A stretch of 28,800 bases of DNA from an uncultured Methanosarcinales archaeon (GTDB lineage Archaea; Nanobdellota; Nanobdellia; Woesearchaeales; CAXGTL01): contig CAZHVK010000003.1 of the NCBI GenBank assembly GCA_964535955.1, positions 124,001 through 152,800 of the forward strand, read 5' to 3'. The translations under genes were made by a program, and so were the position numbers. Positions 10,384 through 25,874 of this stretch are shown in pieces. Within the stretch, counting starts at the first letter, position 1. Each line of letters starts with the position of its first letter. The notes beneath the pieces are model-generated. The model saw only the letters and a list, made by a program, of their open reading frames with translations, did no database searches and was not told where the DNA came from.

Positions 10384-11460
10384 TTATACATCCTTTAGTC
10401 CAGTAGTTTCAAGATAAAAATTACATTCACCATCAGGCATATTAGGAGAATCAATCAACTTAGCAACCCTGCTCCCTTTTTTACCTTTTGTCAGATAAAT
10501 CCTAAATGTTGATGCGTGCGCAACTATATTTCCACCAACAGCTTTTGTTGGATCACCAAAAAACTGTGCAGGATCTGATTGTACTTGGTTTGTTAAATAA
10601 ACACAAACATTACTCATGTCAGCTAACTTAAGCAGAACATGCATATGTTTATTCAACTTTTGTTGCCTTTCAGCTAAAGTTCCACGTCCGATAAACTCTG
10701 CTCTAAAATGTGCTGTTAATGAATCAACTATAACTAATTTAACATTCAATTCTTGTTTTTTAACCAAATCTTCAATCTTTTCAGCTAACAACATCTGATG
10801 ATCTGAGTTATAAGCTCTTGCAACTCTAATATTCTTAAGAACTTTTTCAGGATCAAGTCCAAGTCCAGCAGAAATTTCTTTTATTCTTTCTGGTCTGAAT
10901 GTATTTTCTGTATCAATGTAGACAGTTACAGGATTTTCTTCATCAAGAAGTTGTGTTGTTACAGCTAAAATATGCGCAATTTGTGTTTTTCCTGAACCAA
11001 ATTCTCCAAAACATTCTGTAATTGCTCCTGTTTCAAATCCACCACCAACCAATTTATTAAAATTTTCTGAACTAGTTGATATTTTTCTTACAAGTAGTCT
11101 TTTCTTAAGCATATCTTCACCACTTTTGAAACCCATGTCACAATTATTTCTTGATGCATTTATTACTTTTCTTGCTGCTGTTTCAGTCATTCCTGTAGCT
11201 CCTACTAATTCTCCTGGTGTTGCAACAGCTACAGCTATTACATCACTAAATCCAGCATCTTTTAATTTTTCAATTGTTGCTGGACCTACTCCTGGTAAGT
11301 CATTTAGTGTAAACTCTTTTTTTATTTCTTCTTTTTTTATTTTTTCTTCATTCATTGTCTTTTTTACATACTTTTTGTATGTTTTTACAATCCTTTTACT
11401 TTTGTCTTTGATCATCTGCTCAGGCAGAATTTCGTCTGATTTTATTGTTTTAGATATCAT
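10384..11460 (-). CDS. radA: DNA repair and recombination protein RadA
   Basis: HhH LPGVGP, GFKSG polymerisation motif, Walker A GEFGSGKTQ, YIDTENTFRPER, VDSLTAHFRAE. Start at 11460 has GAGGTGA SD. Confidence 0.97.
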   Translation of the reverse strand: MISKTIKSDEILPEQMIKDKSKRIVKTYKKYVKKTMNEEKIKKEEIKKEFTLNDLPGVGPATIEKLKDAGFSDVIAVAVATPGELVGATGMTETAARKVINASRNNCDMGFKSGEDMLKKRLLVRKISTSSENFNKLVGGGFETGAITECFGEFGSGKTQIAHILAVTTQLLDEENPVTVYIDTENTFRPERIKEISAGLGLDPEKVLKNIRVARAYNSDHQMLLAEKIEDLVKKQELNVKLVIVDSLTAHFRAEFIGRGTLAERQQKLNKHMHVLLKLADMSNVCVYLTNQVQSDPAQFFGDPTKAVGGNIVAHASTFRIYLTKGKKGSRVAKLIDSPNMPDGECNFYLETTGLKDV

Positions 11461-11538: not shown

Positions 11539-11808
11539 TTAAGCAGCAGCGTCTTCTCCAATCCCTTTTAGAGTTAGGTATTCAAACGCTTTGCTAAGAA
11601 CAACAACAGCTTTAGGTAAATCATTAATCCTAAGAGAATTAGTTGACTTCCATTCGCCTTGCTTATCCTTATATCTTCTGTCAAAACTTACAGTTCTGTA
11701 TTCTGTAGCTTCTCCAGTTGTCTTACTTTGGCCTATATTTCGCCACACAGTTACATTTATTGCACCTGTGCTAAACCTTTTTTCAGGTAAATTAGGTAGT
11801 TCTTCCAT
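11539..11808 (-). CDS. Conserved small protein, putative ssDNA-binding (PC4/Whirly-like fold, inferred)
   Basis: PEKRFSTGAINVTVWRN...RRYKDKQGEWKSTNSL..NDLPK suggests beta strands plus a C-terminal helix. GGAGGTGA SD; directly upstream of radA. Function is inference. Confidence 0.65.
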   Translation of the reverse strand: MEELPNLPEKRFSTGAINVTVWRNIGQSKTTGEATEYRTVSFDRRYKDKQGEWKSTNSLRINDLPKAVVVLSKAFEYLTLKGIGEDAAA

Positions 11809-11897
11809 AGAACTCACCTCCATTGCTTTCGCATTTTATTTCATCATCTCCTTGATTATGCACACACTTTTTTGTAAATGGTACCAGAGATGGGAGG

Positions 11898-11913
11898 GCA
11901 TCATCGATGATGC
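11898..11913. promoter_or_regulatory. Perfect 16-bp palindrome GCATCATCGATGATGC
   Basis: Directly visible, next to the TA-rich promoter-like tract (11914-11946) of the radA unit. Confidence 0.5.
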
Positions 11914-11957
11914 TTATAATATATATAAGTAAAGACCCTTTATAAGTCTCACACGCA

Positions 11958-12053
11958 CATGTCCAGTGACCACTGAGAATGAGCTAAGAGCTTGTATCTT
12001 AAGAAATCAAGCATTTAAGGTCAGTGGACATGGTTTTTCAGAGTGTCCACTGA
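11958..12053. repeat. Cluster of TGTCCACTGA-like inverted/direct repeats
   Basis: CATGTCCAGTGA 11958-11969, CCACTGA 11970-11976, TCAGTGGACATG 12021-12032 and TGTCCACTGA 12044-12053. Confidence 0.7.
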
Positions 12054-12135
12054 TAGAGCGGAAAACATGGATATTTAACTAATTATTAACTACAATAAAT
12101 AAATATTTTTATACTATTACAAAAATCCTATTACT

Positions 12136-14104: not shown

Positions 14105-16003
14105 TTATGATACTACAATAGATTCAATTTGTCCTTCTACAATCTCTAATTTATTCTCAAACAAATCTTCAGCAATAATAGTATATTTATGTACTCCTGT
14201 TGGTAAAGGGCCATCTAAATAAGAATTTTCATTTTTATTAGCAGAATATATTCTCACATCATTTCTATAGATATGATATTTTTCAACATCTTTTATTTGT
14301 TTTTCTTCTAAATTATTCCAATTAATTCTAACTTGTTTTTCAATGGCTGTTAACTTGAATTCAACTTTAGGTGGAGCAGTATTATCAGGTATAAATAATG
14401 CAAAATAAATATTTGGTTTTTCACCAAACGCAAATTGTGTATTTGTATTATAGCAAAGATTAATTTTTCTATGCTTGTAAAAGTCATCAGAAATATCATT
14501 GACATTATCATTATTATCATTATCACCACTATTACATATTCCTATTTCTATCCTGTCACCAAACTCACCCTTACTAATATCTTCAACACATTTCTTAATA
14601 TCTTTTTGATCAACATCACAATCCAAAACAATCTTTTTAGAAAATTCAACACTTTTTCTATAATCATCAAAATCATAATCAATTATTATATTAAATGAAG
14701 GTTTTATTGAATATTCACCTATTTCTACAACAGTTTCTGAACTTTGTGATCCTATATTTTCAGTAATTTCAGTATATCCTGCTCTACCTATAGGATCTTC
14801 ACCAACAAGATCACCATATTCACCAAATTCATTTCCACCAATCTCCATCAACATTAATCTAACACATTCATCAGCAAGCCTAGTAGATTTTTTTGATATT
14901 TTTCCTTTATATTTACTTTTACAGCTTCCAGAATCAGATGTTAATGCTTCTACTATATCATTTGAAAAATAACAAAGCGGGCTCACACCTTTGTTTTTCG
15001 AAACTAAATCATCTATTTGTTTAGAAATCTTGAAAACAAGACCAAGATCATATATTATCTCTCCAGTACCACCAATAAGACCAACAGGATCACCCTCACT
15101 TATCTCTTTTCCTTGAGAAATTCCTTCAGAAACTTTAGAAAGGTGTGCATATAATGTAAAAAGATCCACATCGTGTTTGATCACAACATAATTACCATAC
15201 AAAGAAGAACACGTTCTTCCTTGCACACATTTTTTTTCTATTCTATCAACAACCCCATTTGCAACAGATTTCACTTCTGTATCAATATTTGCACTTATTT
15301 CTATTCCATTATTTTGCATTCCTTGTTGTCCATAAGAACCAAAACAAGAAGCAAGATTTTTACTGCTTGGCACAGGCCATGTCTTAAATGTTGTTTTTTC
15401 ATTTTTTATTTCATCTAATCCAATCTTTTCTTTTTTCACACCACCTTTTAAATCAATAACAATTGAATTTATTGCATCACCCTTTATTTTTAATTTTTTA
15501 TTTTTTTTATCATAAAAATCCTTTTTTTCTTCTTCTTTAATTTCTATTTTATGATTATTCAATTCAAACTCATTTTTTTCTAAATATTTATTTAGATTAG
15601 GAATATAGTAATCATTAAAATTACCAATAAATATACTCTTTTCATCAAAAGGATAACATTCCATAGTTTTGTGCTGATCATTTTCATCTATCTTTGTCCA
15701 CATATTTATATCCTGAAAATTACCGCATTCAGAATTCTTTAAACCACCCTTCTTATTCATTTCTAAAATACCTTTATAACCTGCATATTCACCTGATTTA
15801 TCAATATTATAAAGTATATTTTCACCTGTTTGGTAAGTTTTTATAAGATTAATTTGTCTTTCACCTACTTTTTTATCAAGTTTACCTTCTTTATTATTGA
15901 TGATGACTAATGCTGAGATCAGAGCAGCTACCACTATCAAGACTATCACTATGTTATAGATCAATGCTTTTTTGTTTTTGTTTCTTACTTTTCTTATATT
16001 CAT
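14105..16003 (-). CDS. Class III signal peptide protein with degenerate M23/LytM domain and C-terminal Fn3-like domain
   Basis: KNKKA plus hydrophobic helix; WPV...GIEI...VKSVANGVV...YGNYVVIKH...TLYAHLS...VGLIGGTG; C-terminal DNTAPP...INW...YHIYRN...YTIIAED. Confidence 0.85.
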   Translation of the reverse strand: MNIRKVRNKNKKALIYNIVIVLIVVAALISALVIINNKEGKLDKKVGERQINLIKTYQTGENILYNIDKSGEYAGYKGILEMNKKGGLKNSECGNFQDINMWTKIDENDQHKTMECYPFDEKSIFIGNFNDYYIPNLNKYLEKNEFELNNHKIEIKEEEKKDFYDKKNKKLKIKGDAINSIVIDLKGGVKKEKIGLDEIKNEKTTFKTWPVPSSKNLASCFGSYGQQGMQNNGIEISANIDTEVKSVANGVVDRIEKKCVQGRTCSSLYGNYVVIKHDVDLFTLYAHLSKVSEGISQGKEISEGDPVGLIGGTGEIIYDLGLVFKISKQIDDLVSKNKGVSPLCYFSNDIVEALTSDSGSCKSKYKGKISKKSTRLADECVRLMLMEIGGNEFGEYGDLVGEDPIGRAGYTEITENIGSQSSETVVEIGEYSIKPSFNIIIDYDFDDYRKSVEFSKKIVLDCDVDQKDIKKCVEDISKGEFGDRIEIGICNSGDNDNNDNVNDISDDFYKHRKINLCYNTNTQFAFGEKPNIYFALFIPDNTAPPKVEFKLTAIEKQVRINWNNLEEKQIKDVEKYHIYRNDVRIYSANKNENSYLDGPLPTGVHKYTIIAEDLFENKLEIVEGQIESIVVS

Positions 16004-16632
16004 TTTTTACAAATCCACACAATAACTTTCTTATCAGACAATGATTTGTCATATAAATCTAATACTTGACCTAAACATTTACTTCCAGGCACATTTAAAG
16101 GTTTGATAATACTTATATCTACATCAATAGGCATCTTTATGCCGTCTATTATAAGGTGAAAATCTTTATCATCTTTTGACTTTATTTTCTTGATTTCTTC
16201 ATTAGAAAAACGACTAACTCTTAGCCATATATTATGATCTTCATCATCTTGTTTTTTTTCAAACATTTTATTAACAATATTTTTTAAAAATTCACATTTT
16301 TCATTATTTCTTAAATAATTATCAATAGAATGATCAGCACACCTGTATGTTTTTTTTTCATTATTTTCTTGATCAATTATTTCTTCCTCTAGCATGACCA
16401 CCATATCATGCATTGTCATGCTTGTTTCTTCATAAACAATAGGTGTTTTTAGAAAACCTAACAAGATATTATTTCCTTCAATCTCCTCAACCTCAGAACC
16501 AATAACATCTTCTTTTAGTTCTGCTTTTATTGTAAATATCAAAAAAAACACAATCACAACTAAAACAAAAGCCAGGTATGAATAAAAATCTACCAATGGT
16601 CCGCCTATTGTAGCTTTTTTACTCTTTCTCAT
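16000..16632 (-). CDS. Class III signal peptide (pilin-like) protein
   Basis: MRKSKKA-TIGGPLVDFYSYLAFVLVVIVFF; AGGAG SD supports start 16632. Confidence 0.75.
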   Translation of the reverse strand: MRKSKKATIGGPLVDFYSYLAFVLVVIVFFLIFTIKAELKEDVIGSEVEEIEGNNILLGFLKTPIVYEETSMTMHDMVVMLEEEIIDQENNEKKTYRCADHSIDNYLRNNEKCEFLKNIVNKMFEKKQDDEDHNIWLRVSRFSNEEIKKIKSKDDKDFHLIIDGIKMPIDVDISIIKPLNVPGSKCLGQVLDLYDKSLSDKKVIVWICKK

Positions 16633-16648
16633 TCTCCTACACATTAGT

Positions 16649-17251
16649 TTATTCATTTGGCACAGCAACCTCTATTTTAATTTTCCCAGGATAAAAATCA
16701 TTATTATACTTAAAAACAGTATCAAACTCTCTTTCTACAACATAAGAGCCTCTTTCCAGATCTTTTTGTCCATACAATAGGTTAAAGAAATTTTCATTAA
16801 AATATATTTCTCTTTCTCCTTTTTTTTGTTCTATTTTTTTACCCTGGGTTTCTTCTTTTTTTTCATCTTTTTCTTTTTTCTCTTCTTCAAACATATCAGA
16901 ATAATAAGTTATTCTTGCACCCATCCTATTTGTTTTTTCACCAAACCTTTCACCAAAACCTAAATTCTTATTAATTTCTTTTTCAATTTTTTCAAGATCA
17001 TTAATATCAATCACTCCAGGATAAACCCTTCCAATTTCTTCATCATAATAAGAAATTCCATTTTTTGAATACATTAAAACAAAATCATAGACATTTGTTT
17101 CAGCTTGTTCAGTATTAACTTTTGTAACAATAAACCCTCTTATGAGAGCTAGTACTACAAATAATGCAATTATTGTAAAAAATATTCTAGGAATATAATA
17201 CATTACCATCTGGCTAATCTGTGCTTTTTTATTTTTTTTAATTATTTTCAT
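16649..17251 (-). CDS. Class III signal peptide (pilin-like) protein
   Basis: KKNKKA-QISQMVMYYIPRIFFTIIALFVVL. Confidence 0.8.
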   Translation of the reverse strand: MKIIKKNKKAQISQMVMYYIPRIFFTIIALFVVLALIRGFIVTKVNTEQAETNVYDFVLMYSKNGISYYDEEIGRVYPGVIDINDLEKIEKEINKNLGFGERFGEKTNRMGARITYYSDMFEEEKKEKDEKKEETQGKKIEQKKGEREIYFNENFFNLLYGQKDLERGSYVVEREFDTVFKYNNDFYPGKIKIEVAVPNE

Positions 17252-17284
17252 TATACTTGTTATTTTCTTTATTTTATTTTTGTT

Positions 17285-17707
17285 TTAACTTATTCCTTCT
17301 TTTATTTCTAACTTATTTTCTTTATTTGAAAATATTATTTTTTGTGGTTCTTTGATATCTGCATCGAAACTTCCATCATGAGACAAATATGGAAATACTT
17401 TTTTATTGCCTGTTTTTTCAGAAACAAACACATTACTATCTAACCATACAAATTCAAATTTATGCAGTACTGTATCACCAGAATACATAGCATATTCAAA
17501 TTCAATATCTTGTGGAGAATTTTCAATAATAGATGTTGTTAATGCTAAGTCTCTTGACAAATAATTTCTTTCAAACAAAGTATTGTCTTTTATTGATATT
17601 AAGTAATATGTTAATCCAAGCCCCATGATTCCAACCAAGATAATTTCTAATATGACAAACCAAACTAGGTAAGTTGTTGCTTTTTTATAAAATCCTCTTT
17701 TTTTCAT
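17285..17707 (-). CDS. Class III signal peptide (pilin-like) protein
   Basis: MKKRGFYKKA-TTYLVWFVILEIILVG; ATG 17707 lies about 30 nt downstream of a TATA tract. Confidence 0.75.
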   Translation of the reverse strand: MKKRGFYKKATTYLVWFVILEIILVGIMGLGLTYYLISIKDNTLFERNYLSRDLALTTSIIENSPQDIEFEYAMYSGDTVLHKFEFVWLDSNVFVSEKTGNKKVFPYLSHDGSFDADIKEPQKIIFSNKENKLEIKEGIS

Positions 17708-17759
17708 GTTATTACTATGATTTAATATAATTTTATATATATATGTTTTGTTTTTTATG

Positions 17760-17874
17760 TGTTGGTACAAGCCGCCAGTTTGGCAAGTGAGCCAAAATTA
17801 GATTCGTAAGACTGCCTTGGTACTCTATTTATTATTTTTGAAATTAGAGTAGGCGAACGAGGGTTGTACCAACA
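17760..17874. ncRNA. Structured non-coding element, copy 1 (RNA or ssDNA/MITE-like)
   Basis: 11-bp terminal inverted repeat; shares AGTGAGCCAA, TAAGACT, TTGGT and AGGCGAACG plus covarying stems with 24861-24972. Confidence 0.6.
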
Positions 17875-17939
17875 TTTGTTTTTTATGTGTACCAAAACAC
17901 ATAAATCTTTAAATACAAAATTTTATTCCAAACACTAAA

Positions 17940-22191: not shown

Positions 22192-23298
22192 TTATATTGT
22201 TCTGCAATTATTAGTTGCTCCCCTCCACCATTGCCATTTACATTCATCCACTTTATTACAAGGATCAATAAAACACATTTCTTTATCATCACCATAATCT
22301 TCACATCTATTAATCTTATTACAATCTACACAATAATTATCACTAAATAATCCAATACCATCATAAGTCCATCCACCACAATTCAATCCACATTCATTAT
22401 ATTCACATACATACTCTGTTTTATAATCCTTGCATTTCTTTATATCTTTACAATCATCCACTTCTTCAACTATTTCTTCACCTTGTCCTCTTTTAAAACA
22501 TCCTTCTTCATTATTCCATCTACAATTTCCATATTTACAAGGATCTTTTTCACATACATATTTTCTTTTAGGATCATAATGTTTACAATCTTTATTAACA
22601 GGGCAATTCATACATGATAACATAATTCCCCCAGAATAATGTGGAACACAATTATCATAAATATTGCATGTATTATCTAAACAATCAACTTCATTTGTTC
22701 CATAATCATTACATTTGTCTATTTTACTACACTTTTCTAAAAATTCTTGTTTTTCTTCTTGTCTTCTTTCTTGTTCTGCTAATCTTTGTTCAATAGCTTG
22801 CCTTCCTTCTTCACTTTCTTCATCATCATCTTCTTCTTCTTCTTCTTCTTCACTTCTTGTCATTCCTTCTTCTTCAGGATAACATCTTGCATCTTTGCCT
22901 TGATCAAGCCTTTTTGAAATTTGTATACTACATTTTTTATTATAAACACCACTACTTAAAGAATCATCTAAGTCACATTCATCAGCAATCTTATCTTTAT
23001 CTTCATCATCTTTTAGATTGTCACACCCAGAATCTTGAGAACAAACACAATTATCACAATCATCAGGAAATCCATCCTCATCAATATCAAGATATTCATC
23101 TGTTCCAAGCAACTTCCCTTTTTCTTTGCAATAATTATATTCTTGTTCATTAAGTGATCTTCTAGTTTGTTGTGTAAATTTATCTAACCAATTATTTTGT
23201 ATAAAAACTATAGAAAAAGCAACAACAAGTAATATGACAACTACAATAATTATTCTTACAACCATTGTTGCAGCTTTTTTATTTTTAAGAAATAACAT
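22192..23298 (-). CDS. Class III signal peptide protein with TSP3-like motifs, acidic linker and four Cys-rich repeats
   Basis: Paralog of 20579-21118 over its first ~140 aa; poly-E/D linker; C-x2-(I/V)-x2-C-x-(D/H)Y...C-x3-4-C repeats. Confidence 0.85.
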   Translation of the reverse strand: MLFLKNKKAATMVVRIIIVVVILLVVAFSIVFIQNNWLDKFTQQTRRSLNEQEYNYCKEKGKLLGTDEYLDIDEDGFPDDCDNCVCSQDSGCDNLKDDEDKDKIADECDLDDSLSSGVYNKKCSIQISKRLDQGKDARCYPEEEGMTRSEEEEEEEDDDEESEEGRQAIEQRLAEQERRQEEKQEFLEKCSKIDKCNDYGTNEVDCLDNTCNIYDNCVPHYSGGIMLSCMNCPVNKDCKHYDPKRKYVCEKDPCKYGNCRWNNEEGCFKRGQGEEIVEEVDDCKDIKKCKDYKTEYVCEYNECGLNCGGWTYDGIGLFSDNYCVDCNKINRCEDYGDDKEMCFIDPCNKVDECKWQWWRGATNNCRTI

Positions 23299-23299
23299 A

Positions 23300-23563
23300 T
23301 TAACTAATTGTTTTACAACATTCTTTTTTATTTTCTCCTTCTACTTCAGGACAACTTAATAATGTCATCAGAGTACCACCATCTTCTTTACATTTCCCAG
23401 ATTCAACACATTCATAGCCTTTACTTTGACAATCTTCAAGTCCTGTGTTGAACCAGTCAATCTTTCCAGTAAATATCATGATCATCACAACCAAAACAAT
23501 CAATAGAAGAACAGCAATTATGATTGTTCTTAATGACAATCCTTGAGCCTTTTTATTTATCAT
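23300..23563 (-). CDS. Small pilin-like protein with six-Cys head
   Basis: MINKKA-QGLSLRTIIIAVLLLIVLVV; AGGTGA SD; ends in CC. Confidence 0.85.
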   Translation of the reverse strand: MINKKAQGLSLRTIIIAVLLLIVLVVMIMIFTGKIDWFNTGLEDCQSKGYECVESGKCKEDGGTLMTLLSCPEVEGENKKECCKTIS

Positions 23564-23581
23564 ATTAATCACCTTTTTTAA

Positions 23582-24661
23582 TTAATTTATCAGTTTATCA
23601 TAATCTCTTTTTTTAATGCAAACATCTTTATTCATGAACTCTGTTAATTTTTGTTTTGCTTGTTCATCCCAATCATTAATAGGATATTTTGAAGAATACA
23701 CACCTTTTTTACAAGAATGAACAATATCTTTACTATATCTATATTCCACTGTTACACTTAGTTTTCCAATTAATTTATTCATCTCTCTTTTATCAACACC
23801 TTGTTCATCACCAGCAGTTATCAATCTTTCAACACAATTATCAAAAAATATTTTCATTCCCCATGGACTTTGTTGTCTGAATTCAAAATCAATCAAATTA
23901 AGATAAGTATCTACCATACTATCATAATTATTTTGTTCAGAATACAATTTTCCAAGTTCTTCTAAAGTACCTCTATAATCAGCTAATCTATCTTCACTAC
24001 CTGTACCTGAACCAAATATTTCTTCATAAAGTTTGATTGCATCTTGTTTATCATCTCCCTCATCTCTTCTAGATAAAACATCAGCTTTCAAAACCTTTAG
24101 ATATAATATGAATGATTGATGTGCATTTACACCTTTTGCTTGTTCTATTTTAAGATATTTTTCAATTTCCTTTAATACATTACCATAATCTCCTTGAATC
24201 TTCATCGCTTCAATCAATTCCAAAACATTCAACCTTTTATAACCAGGATCTTCAGTTGTTTCAATTAAATCCTCAATATATCCTTCACCTTTTTTAGGAT
24301 CAATTTCAGTTAAGATTCTGCCATGATTATATCTCATATTGTCTTTTTCAAATTTCATACCCTTAAATTCATCAGGAAAACATTTTTCAAACCCTTTAAA
24401 AAAACTTTCATCTGATTTATATATTACAACATTCCTATCTATCTTTTCTCTATATATTTCTTTGTACTCACTCAATGTTATACCTGTTGCATCACATTTT
24501 TTATCACTCAAAGAATCAACCCAATTTTTAAACACATTAAATCCAGGTGTTATACCTTTACTTATAACACCAATTAAAACAGTAAATAAGAGTAATAATA
24601 GAATAATGATTAAAACAATTACTTTTATACCAACTCCTTTTTTATTTATTCTTTTTCTCAT
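23582..24661 (-). CDS. Class III signal peptide protein with TPR-like helical domain
   Basis: INKKG-VGIKVIVLIIILLLLL; DAIKLYEEI and LEELGKLYSEQNNYDSMVDTY TPR-like helices. Confidence 0.8.
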   Translation of the reverse strand: MRKRINKKGVGIKVIVLIIILLLLLFTVLIGVISKGITPGFNVFKNWVDSLSDKKCDATGITLSEYKEIYREKIDRNVVIYKSDESFFKGFEKCFPDEFKGMKFEKDNMRYNHGRILTEIDPKKGEGYIEDLIETTEDPGYKRLNVLELIEAMKIQGDYGNVLKEIEKYLKIEQAKGVNAHQSFILYLKVLKADVLSRRDEGDDKQDAIKLYEEIFGSGTGSEDRLADYRGTLEELGKLYSEQNNYDSMVDTYLNLIDFEFRQQSPWGMKIFFDNCVERLITAGDEQGVDKREMNKLIGKLSVTVEYRYSKDIVHSCKKGVYSSKYPINDWDEQAKQKLTEFMNKDVCIKKRDYDKLIN

Positions 24662-24664
24662 GAT

Positions 24665-24823
24665 CTAAAGACCAGATATATCTACATTTCCAAAATAATT
24701 TTTAGCCCATATCAAAAATAAGACAATCACACCTAATAATGCCAATAATAAAACTACCTTTATCAATAACTGCATAGACATTTCAAATCCTTTTTTGTTT
24801 TTAAAAAATCTCATTATTTTCAT
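24665..24823 (-). CDS. Minimal pilin-like peptide, 52 aa
   Basis: Manual translation MKIMRFFKNKKG-FEMSMQLLIKVVLLLALLGVIVLFLIWAKNYFGNVDISGL; stops 3 nt before the next start. Confidence 0.8.
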   Translation of the reverse strand: MKIMRFFKNKKGFEMSMQLLIKVVLLLALLGVIVLFLIWAKNYFGNVDISGL

Positions 24824-24860
24824 ATTAATACCTTTATTTATTTAAATGTTTATATATATT

Positions 24861-24972
24861 TATGTGCATAGTGCCTGTAAGGCCAGTGAGCCAATTTACA
24901 TATCATAAGACTACATTTGGTGCTTCATTTACTTTTGTAGCATTTGAAGCAGGCGAACGTGCTATGCACATA
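24861..24972. ncRNA. Structured non-coding element, copy 2
   Basis: TATGTGCATAG/CTATGCACATA 11-bp terminal inverted repeat; same conserved blocks and stems as 17760-17874. Confidence 0.6.
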
Positions 24973-24977
24973 TGATT

Positions 24978-25874
24978 TTAAACAGCTTTTGTCACAATAT
25001 ACTTACATCCTAACTGATTTTGCACAGTATCCTTATCATACGGCCTTAACATTACAAAAGCAGCCCATTCAAAATCTTCTTGTGTAAATTTAGATGCTAC
25101 ATATGTCCAAGTAATACCAATCACTGCTAATGGGATTGTAACCTTTGCACTAACAATTCCCAAAGCAAGAAGAGCAATACTCCCACCTGTTGTTGCTCCC
25201 CCACCACCATAATATTTTATTTTTCTAACAAAATCATTCCATTTATCTTTTCCTTTTACATAAACAAACATAACACTATATTCTTTACTCTTTGAAGTAT
25301 CAATTGTTCCAATAAAATTTTGATTTTCATTATTATATTTTAAAAATTCAGAACCATCTGTTTTAAATCCTGTTAAATATCCATAATATGTTGGTATTTT
25401 CTTGTCTTTGTATTTATAATGCTCACCACTTGGAATCTTTTTTACAGCCAAGTATTCACCAAAGTCATCTATAACTAAATCATCATCTTCAAATGTTATA
25501 TGACTGCAAACACCACAATAAATATTTGGATTTTCAAACAATTCTAAAGTTCCTTCTCCATACTGGTCCCAGCAATCATACATAGATTCAGCAATGATTT
25601 CTTTTGCTTTATCATTTTCTTTTTTTTCAATAGTAATCAGATCTGTTTTACAATTAGGTGGATTTTCCTTTGCATCTATTTTTAATTTTTTAGCTAACTT
25701 AGTTCCAAAATTCCCATAAACACTAGCTTTGCATATCTGTTTATCAGTATTTTCATCAATCTCATTAAATGTATTTGCATAAAAAACACCAAATATAAAC
25801 AACACAATCAACAATATTACCATAGTTATGATTAATTCCATTGACATGCTTTTTTTATTATTCTTAGAAAACAT
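24978..25874 (-). CDS. Class III signal peptide-like protein with conserved Cys domain
   Basis: NNKKS-MSMELIITMVILL; CKASV...C...DCWDQYGEG...YCGVCS; internal hydrophobic Gly-rich segment. Confidence 0.8.
   Translation of the reverse strand: MFSKNNKKSMSMELIITMVILLIVLFIFGVFYANTFNEIDENTDKQICKASVYGNFGTKLAKKLKIDAKENPPNCKTDLITIEKKENDKAKEIIAESMYDCWDQYGEGTLELFENPNIYCGVCSHITFEDDDLVIDDFGEYLAVKKIPSGEHYKYKDKKIPTYYGYLTGFKTDGSEFLKYNNENQNFIGTIDTSKSKEYSVMFVYVKGKDKWNDFVRKIKYYGGGGATTGGSIALLALGIVSAKVTIPLAVIGITWTYVASKFTQEDFEWAAFVMLRPYDKDTVQNQLGCKYIVTKAV

Follow-up and report, generated by a model that had tools for sequence, protein, structure and literature searches.

A family of small structured elements, putative non-coding RNAs of Woesearchaeota-type archaea, that matches no described family

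No described family accounts for the structured element reported here, which occurs twice in the window (the whole 28,800-nt stretch of DNA analysed) and once in a second genome; the family is new, and its function is unproven. As orphan structured RNAs are common, the claim made here is that of a new family and not yet of a new mechanism. The conservation and covariation of the element, its position, and its presence or absence at related sites were observed directly, and the original proposal of a possible new non-coding RNA is supported, as are selection on the fold and the lack of a match to a known family. DPANN genomes are tiny and contain little non-coding DNA, and a conserved two-copy RNA of 115 nt is therefore likely to be functional; in the window, two diverged copies have been kept within 7 kb. 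The explanation towards which we lean is an undescribed family of independently transcribed, stable small RNAs that act in trans as a scaffold or as a guide-like RNP RNA, the trans-acting role itself being a best guess with three members known. If the RNA is of this RNP or guide-like type, its variable segments of fixed length point to a targeting system undescribed in archaea; if the element is mobile, it is a rare one whose ends are kept by pairing and not by sequence. Either way, it offers RNA discovery a defined candidate from a lineage for which a non-exhaustive survey of open-access titles and abstracts indicated almost no non-coding RNAs beyond rRNA, tRNA and C/D sRNAs.

Members of the family

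Both window copies fitted the predicted two-copy pattern exactly, the regular expression GCC-N5-GGC-N-AGTGAGCCAA-N11-TAAGACT-N3/4-TTGG-...-GGCGAACG matching once in each region, at 17774-17859 and 24873-24959 (Table 1). The shared 10-mer alone was not significant, with two matches against 1.28 expected at up to one mismatch. A covariance model built from the two window copies (R1) recovered both with the scores given in Table 1, and among the 22 matches listed in the window at E values up to 10, the next best scored only 11 bits and corresponded to the reverse strand of copy 2, so that the window carries exactly two copies. Both are intergenic, copy 1 within 17708-17939 and copy 2 within 24824-24977. 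Outside the conserved blocks the two have diverged to near randomness, which fits long purifying selection on each copy.

Table 1. Coordinates of the two window copies, their predicted helices and segments, and associated features
Feature	Position in window	Strand	Remarks
Copy 1, putative RNA, 115 nt	17760..17874	+	regular expression; covariance model, 128.7 bits
Copy 1, P1	17760-17773/17861-17874	+	
Copy 1, P2	17774-17776/17782-17784	+	
Copy 1, P3	17787-17792/17853-17858	+	
Copy 1, P4	17793-17795/17817-17819	+	
Copy 1, P5	17821-17827/17845-17851	+	17-nt loop
Copy 1, variable 11-mer	17796-17806	+	
Copy 1, box TAAGACT	17807-17813	+	
Copy 2, putative RNA, 112 nt	24861..24972	+	regular expression; covariance model, 133.4 bits
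Copy 2, P1	24861-24872/24961-24972	+	
Copy 2, P2	24873-24875/24881-24883	+	
Copy 2, P3	24886-24891/24953-24958	+	
Copy 2, P4	24892-24894/24917-24919	+	
Copy 2, P5	24921-24927/24945-24951	+	17-nt loop
Copy 2, variable 11-mer	24895-24905	+	
Copy 2, box TAAGACT	24906-24912	+	
TATA-like box TTTATATA	17732..17739	+	8/8 to TTTAWATA; centre 24.5 nt before copy 1 P1
TATA-like box TTTATTTA	24833..24840	+	7/8; centre 24.5 nt before copy 2 P1, by reading
T-run TTTGTTTTTT	17875..17884	+	directly after copy 1 P1
Short T-run TGATTTTA	24973..24980	+	directly after copy 2 P1
Exact 16-nt direct repeat TTTGTTTTTTATGTGT, left copy	17747..17762	+	overlaps first 3 nt of copy 1 P1
16-nt direct repeat, right copy	17875..17890	+	abuts copy 1 P1 end
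Divergent neighbour of copy 1, 140-aa protein	17285..17707	-	basic N-terminus, Gly-Phe, one hydrophobic segment
Divergent neighbour of copy 2, 52-aa protein	24665..24823	-	MKIMRFFKNKKGF, then hydrophobic segment

The search of a collection of genomes from 185,579 species with a strict three-block pattern gave no matches, the source genome itself included. Because both copies lie within 10 kb of the TopoVI-A gene, this gene was used as the locus query, and a homologue set of 80 loci with 10-kb flanks (1,198,174 bases) was assembled from 314 TopoVI-A relatives, the other 234 being left out. Among the 80 loci, R1 detected one further member, at 10592-10707 (- strand) of locus L048, with 47.4 bits and an E value of 7.3e-8. 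With a model rebuilt from the three sequences (R2) no fourth member was found in the 80 loci; nhmmer run with its filters off (--max) gave a best match of E 1.2 after the three members, and R2 with filters off reached at best 11.5 bits, and no copy, in the 83,975 bases of the five loci that are closest or syntenic. Two low-scoring matches of R1 and R2 were rejected as members, one in L079 (15.5-16.7 bits), which is without the GCGAAC block and lies in apparent coding sequence, and the other in L063 (16 bits). A script requiring the motif plus a stem returned seven candidates, i.e. the three members and L077, L018, L019 and L020; these four, with stems of 8-9 bp but, as far as reading shows, without any other block, were likewise rejected. 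Phage and plasmid sequences, searched with blastn, gave only chance matches of 21-33 nt (E 0.08-0.3). The known members thus comprise three sequences from two genomes, for which reason each count of covariation given below draws on two or three lineages; covariation statistics corrected for phylogeny would require more members than these three. Their GC content (0.40-0.49; 0.40-0.41 for the window copies) exceeds that of the background (0.26-0.31).

The window is AT-rich (25-34% GC) and encodes RadA, TopoVI-A, LonB, an RPA-like protein and a presenilin-type peptidase, as revealed by a Pfam scan of its ORFs. The best relatives of its TopoVI-A, 70-95% identical, are on contigs titled Woesearchaeota, Nanoarchaeota or Nanoarchaeia. 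The host is thus an archaeon of Woesearchaeota type. TopoVI-A genes 67-95% identical were also present on contigs titled 'uncultured Methanosarcinales', Planctomycetota, Eisenbacteria, Bacteroidota and Binatia (L001, L004, L006, L050, L070, L073, L077, L078, L080 and others), which are probably mislabelled bins or contaminant contigs.

Fold and covariation

Closing stems of 11 bp, different in sequence yet perfectly paired in each copy, had been predicted. The stems are real, but they span 12-14 positions: the closing inverted repeat of copy 1 (TGTTGGTACAAGCC/GGGTTGTACCAACA, 17760-17773/17861-17874) comprises 14 nt with 93% complementarity, and that of copy 2 (TATGTGCATAG/CTATGCACATA, 24861-24871/24962-24972) comprises 11 nt with 100% complementarity, or 12 when a U·G pair is included. 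The inner 7-bp hairpin differs between the window copies at three pairs, all of them re-paired, as had been noted from the sequence. In L048, both the closing stem and the inner hairpin are built from other bases, with pairing fully restored. Folding of the window copies was better than that of shuffled sequences, with z -4.37 (0/200 shuffles) and z -2.27 (4/200).

In the alignment of the three sequences, 73 of 75 cells are paired (97.3%) and 15 of 25 pairs have changed on both sides, including 9 of the 12 pairs of P1 and 6 of the 7 pairs of P5. This alignment was fitted to the model and is not independent of it; none of 500 shuffles matched its pairing and covariation, and when partners were slid by 1-3 columns only 17-39% remained paired. 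These figures substantiate the earlier proposal that the structure is under selection. RNAalifold, applied to the same alignment, recovered P1, P2, P3 and P5, with P3 as a G-C/U-A...G-C/C-G helix around the GA/GA block, and altogether five helices (P1 to P5) are supported by the three sequences.

P3 (GUGAGC/GCGAAC) is invariant in all three members and includes tandem G·A pairs, GA standing opposite GA with flanking G-C pairs. It had been suggested that the pairing of these blocks and that of the neighbouring GCCAA and TTGGT would give two mutually exclusive folds; instead, as the third homologue shows, the two can coexist as P3 and P4 (CAA/UUG). P4 consists of C-G, A-U and A-U pairs in the window copies as against G-C, C-G and U-A (GCU/AGC) in L048, and the distance from P4 to the conserved box is equal in all of them despite the three exchanged pairs; the helix is only 3 bp long and its support comes from one lineage contrast. 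The loop closed by P4 measures 21-22 nt and is made up of 11 variable nucleotides, UAAGACU or UAAAACU (UAARACU), and 3-4 further nucleotides. In all three members, the 11-nt segment before UAARACU and the 17-nt loop of P5 are fixed in length and free in sequence.

The central fold is uncertain. In L048, the predicted minimum-energy fold has other pairings and is 7.4 kcal/mol better than that with P3 enforced (-48.0 vs -40.6 kcal/mol), while the corresponding gap in the window copies is 1.3-3.0 kcal/mol. Nor is the strand settled by energy, because the reverse complements fold about equally well (-33.5 vs -37.4, -33.5 vs -33.2 and -48.1 vs -48.0 kcal/mol for reverse complement and RNA strand, respectively). 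The RNA is assigned to the + strand by virtue of the tandem G·A pairs, the single U·G pair, the T-runs and the TATA spacing.

According to the explanation that we favour, the product in Woesearchaeota-type (DPANN) archaea would be an RNA about 112-118 nt long, with its ends paired in the long closing helix P1. P1 would stack on the small conserved hairpin P2 (GCC/GGC), and a third arm would open with P3 and then split into P4, whose loop would present the variable 11-mer followed by UAARACU, and the hairpin P5. The invariant junction may serve as a protein-binding or architectural core of the k-turn or k-junction type, and the variable segments of fixed length may set the specificity of each paralogue. 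The specificity that these segments would give each paralogue leads us to infer action in trans, the RNA serving as a scaffold or as the guide-like RNA of an RNP.

Transcription signals, neighbouring genes and related sites

The TATA-like box of copy 1 lies within the 52-nt spacer common to the copy and the divergent gene (ATG 17707). That of copy 2 borders directly on the TTTAAATA box (- strand) belonging to the divergent gene (ATG 24823); the best box found there by script was another 8/8 match, which is centred at -8 from P1 and thus too close to serve. L048 has a 7/8 match centred 30 nt before P1. By comparison, the leaderless protein genes of the window show clear TATA boxes at -26 to -32 from the ATG. 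Matches of this kind are weak when taken alone, since such octamers are common in AT-rich (28% GC) DNA. T-runs begin 0-5 nt past P1 in all three members, and none is present on the opposite strand; the T-run of copy 1 is likely to be an archaeal oligo-T terminator, and that of copy 2 overlaps the stop codon of a convergent gene (24978-25874, - strand). As P1 starts 37-55 nt from the ATG of the divergent gene in all three members, one TATA region appears to be shared with that gene. The TATA spacing, the T-runs and the shared TATA region are suggestive, although not proof, of a separate transcription unit, in which each RNA gene would borrow the TATA region of a divergent protein gene and end at the T-run.

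No ORF conserved in the three members was found. Copy 2 contains a 37-codon ATG-to-stop frame (24862-24975, + strand), copy 1 one of 14 codons and L048 none on the RNA strand, and a small-peptide reading was rejected as the frames are not conserved across the members. The frame of copy 2 spans the whole element and could therefore be annotated wrongly by an automatic gene caller. A riboswitch or 5' leader was also rejected: copy 2 faces the 3' end of the convergent gene and has no gene downstream on its strand, and the gene that follows copy 1 or the L048 copy is set off from it by a T-run and a TATA box.

Of the pilin-like genes said to adjoin both copies, the genes themselves (ATG 17707 and 24823, - strand) exist and are divergent, but their pilin-like nature could not be confirmed, neither product belonging to a Pfam family at cut-off; all that both show is a basic N-terminus, then Gly-Phe and a hydrophobic stretch. 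A link with pilin promoters is in any case not a property of the family, because the L048 copy adjoins ABCE1: it lies between this gene, which runs in the same direction beyond the T-run and TATA box, and an unrelated 141-aa gene on its other side without a Pfam match. These findings bear on the possibility that the element acts in cis as part of the shared promoter region, controlling or insulating the divergent gene at the DNA or RNA level. Such a role would agree with the constant placement of P1 across one TATA region from the divergent ATG, and with the fact that the two neighbours in the window, both of them small membrane proteins, resemble each other at the N-terminus. It is, however, difficult to reconcile with the unrelated neighbour in L048, with the syntenic locus L015, in which the 140-aa gene has a relative and the TATA region is kept although no RNA lies beside them, and with a multi-helix core with invariant loops that exceeds the needs of an insulator. 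Moreover, complementarity of the loops to the neighbouring mRNAs was not above that of shuffles (fractions 0.04-0.91), the cross pair scoring no worse than the cognate pair. We thus regard a cis-acting role as decidedly improbable; an RNA acting in trans as part of an RNP, which we prefer, would not regulate the adjacent genes. No antisense targets of the variable segments or loops above shuffles were found across the whole window.

Each of the small membrane-protein genes stands first in a run of same-strand genes (14105-17707 and 22192-24823, both - strand) whose Pfam matches are weak or lacking. A TPR protein and an M23 peptidase protein of 632 aa are encoded among them, and the runs may represent surface or secretion operons.

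Orthologous sites were compared by local alignments of the flanks, as global MAFFT alignments proved misleading. L015 is syntenic with the window: of 27 window proteins queried, 12 have relatives there, and their order is conserved. At the site of copy 2, its flanks align up to 24853 and from 24973 onwards, with 22 unrelated nucleotides in place of 119; at the site of copy 1, its left flank aligns up to 17752 and its spacer, which does not resemble the RNA, falls short by about 89 nt. Likewise, L045 shares with L048 the arrangement of ABCE1 (84% identity) and the 141-aa gene (82%), with a spacer of 136 as against 221 nt and no RNA. The search for empty sites advised in the original prediction thus showed the element to be absent at all three orthologous sites, two in L015 and one in L045, which keeps a mobile-element reading alive. 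At the position of the L048 RNA, L045 (about 11560-11590, - strand, upstream of ABCE1) carries about 72 nt of unrelated filler, in which a perfect 8-bp hairpin (GGTTTGGT...ACCAAACC) immediately precedes the TATA box of ABCE1.

Mobility is also made possible by the exact 16-nt direct repeats that flank copy 1, repeats of at least 16 nt having been obtained in only 1 of 20000 random placements. The flanking repeat of L048 is 9 nt long (1.3% of placements), and copy 2 has none beyond chance (6 nt, 32% background). Copy 1 is followed by a perfect 9-bp hairpin (17882-17890/17897-17905) and a second TGTACCAA. Since the 16-nt repeat, this hairpin and the second TGTACCAA follow copy 1, an alternative closing stem of 18 nt (17752-17769/17888-17905, 83% complementary) around copy 1 and its T-run is possible, which might stem from a past local duplication or belong to a precursor.

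According to the mobile-element reading, the family would be a small non-autonomous element, either MITE-like or spreading via an RNA or ssDNA intermediate, whose fold is recognized by a mobilizing enzyme and whose transcription, if any, is incidental or serves only its spread. Like MITEs and SINE-like repeats, the element is about 115 bp long, ends in inverted repeats, is flanked by direct repeats in two of three copies and varies in presence, three different sites being occupied in two genomes; the whole element also folds as ssDNA (z -5.67 and -1.93). Unlike them, its terminal inverted repeats are kept by pairing and not by sequence, with 9 of the 12 terminal pairs differing on both sides, which an end-reading transposase would not tolerate, and its internal loops are conserved. 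Flanking repeats of 16 nt, 9 nt and none may argue against a fixed target-site duplication, the copies are few, the two in the same genome are old and divergent and not recent, no copy was found in the 84 kb of closest or syntenic loci with filters off, and L015 and L045 carry unrelated filler and not clean empty sites. HUH-type mobilization, which had been proposed, gained no support either: the 29 window ORFs scanned against Pfam contained no HUH/Y1 transposase or TnpB partner and no other transposase, integrase or reverse transcriptase domain. The divergence outside the blocks and the non-conserved ends argue against a classical transposon, while the empty sites and the flanking repeats speak for a gene that moves or is quickly turned over. 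We therefore consider mobility as the primary identity of the element unlikely, if deserving of attention; the ideas of an RNA gene and of a mobile element are not mutually exclusive.

One combination of the two, more speculative and rather less probable still, would be a prokaryotic counterpart of SINEs, in which an RNA gene selected for its fold and not its ends copies itself, perhaps via an RNA intermediate and a DPANN reverse transcriptase, and persists only if its landing site adjoins a TATA box already present; in this cycle, a new catalytic core might be provided by the hammerhead-like junction. Reverse transcriptases are said to be common in DPANN archaea.

Relation to known RNAs

As predicted, no known family was recovered. 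With membership defined as a score at or above the family gathering cut-off, the 4227 models of Rfam 15 gave no matches in the whole window, and scans up to E 10 around copy 1, copy 2 and the L048 copy returned only unrelated noise of 9.9-26.8 bits, far below the cut-offs. ARAGORN detected no tRNA or tmRNA genes in the window. Neither Rfam nor ARAGORN thus supported 5S rRNA, tRNA, hammerhead, C/D, SRP, RNase P or group II domains, and nothing similar to the element was found among the titles and abstracts surveyed in the open-access literature.

Archaeal C/D box sRNAs resemble the element in several respects. Their genes are squeezed against the promoters or ends of protein genes, and they too are small, are independently transcribed (as the element presumably is), have a protein-binding core based on G·A pairs and occur as paralogues that differ in a variable segment of fixed length before a short conserved box. 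C/D boxes lie near the termini, with C being RUGAUGA and D being CUGA. The element, by reading, has AGUGAGC/GCGAAC in their place, is twice the size and has five helices; Rfam C/D models did not match it and gave only noise-level matches elsewhere in the window.

A self-cleaving ribozyme of hammerhead-like architecture, perhaps on a mobile unit, was considered because the element is small, sporadic and organized as a three-way junction closed by a terminal helix, as type III hammerheads are. The order of its parts (closing stem, hairpin, 6-nt linker, U-G-A-G...C-G-A-A arm, closing stem) follows the type III topology, a closing stem and two arms being recovered as P1, P2 and P3 by RNAalifold, and small ribozyme-bearing repeats likewise show a sporadic distribution. 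In the hammerhead consensus, stems I and II are joined by the seven nucleotides CUGANGA, and stem III is preceded by GAAA. All three members, however, have (A/C)AGUGA and GAAC-G at these places, so that the linkers of the core are shorter by one base and deviate at positions held to be essential; the 15.1-16.1 position would be C-G instead of A-U, two hairpins branch off the second arm, and neither the hammerhead nor any other Rfam ribozyme family was matched even up to E 10. A ribozyme would accordingly seem a very doubtful identity for this fold.

A highly divergent housekeeping RNA missed by the models (5S rRNA, an intron-bearing tRNA, or a fragment of SRP RNA or RNase P) is already largely refuted, and scarcely any likelihood is left to it. 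The element does recall 5S rRNA in its size of about 115-120 nt, its long terminal helix with paired termini, its three-way junction, its G·A-rich motif of loop-E type and its own promoter, which for the element is a putative one. It differs in helix order and loops and is not universally present, being missing from syntenic relatives, and neither a 5S model (RF00001) nor any other housekeeping family scored up to E 10; ARAGORN found no tRNA. In addition, Rfam-detectable 16S-23S-5S rRNAs, including a canonical 5S, are reported from 203 of 208 complete Nanobdellota genomes, Woesearchaeales included (10.64898/2026.05.13.725050). The lack of any RF00001 score, the canonical 5S of the lineage and the absence of the element from relatives led us to reject a 5S identity.

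The tandem G·A/A·G pairs characteristic of k-turns are present in all three members, with a presumably sheared geometry, and their position beside a three-way junction is shared with k-junction RNAs such as the TPP riboswitch junction and DUF-3268. In a k-junction, as defined in PMC10573300, the loop is on the bulged strand, the third helix is on the non-bulged strand and helices C and T are coaxial. Measured against this definition, P1 of the element would be on the non-bulged strand, with P2 as the C helix and P1 as the T helix, and the P1/P2 linker of 0 nt is as expected if the two are coaxially stacked as in a k-junction. Its loop, in contrast, has 4 nt, two of which could pair (G-C, U-A) with the 4-nt 3' linker, so that a plain helix with an internal G·A block would fit the P1/P2/P3 junction equally well. 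The element has no sequence relation to TPP or DUF-3268 and no Rfam match to either.

Another small RNA-like gene, of hairpin type, which also lacks an Rfam family match, was observed in the window at 11958-12035 (+ strand), within the intergenic region 11824-12135. Its closing stem measures 12-13 bp and contains one mismatch; a TATA-like box lies upstream at about 34 nt, GGTTTTT follows immediately, and the 3' arm could alternatively be paired with a third arm (about 12041-12052). This region is 78% identical over 208 nt to positions 3328-3534 of L015, where the stems are kept and the interior is variable.
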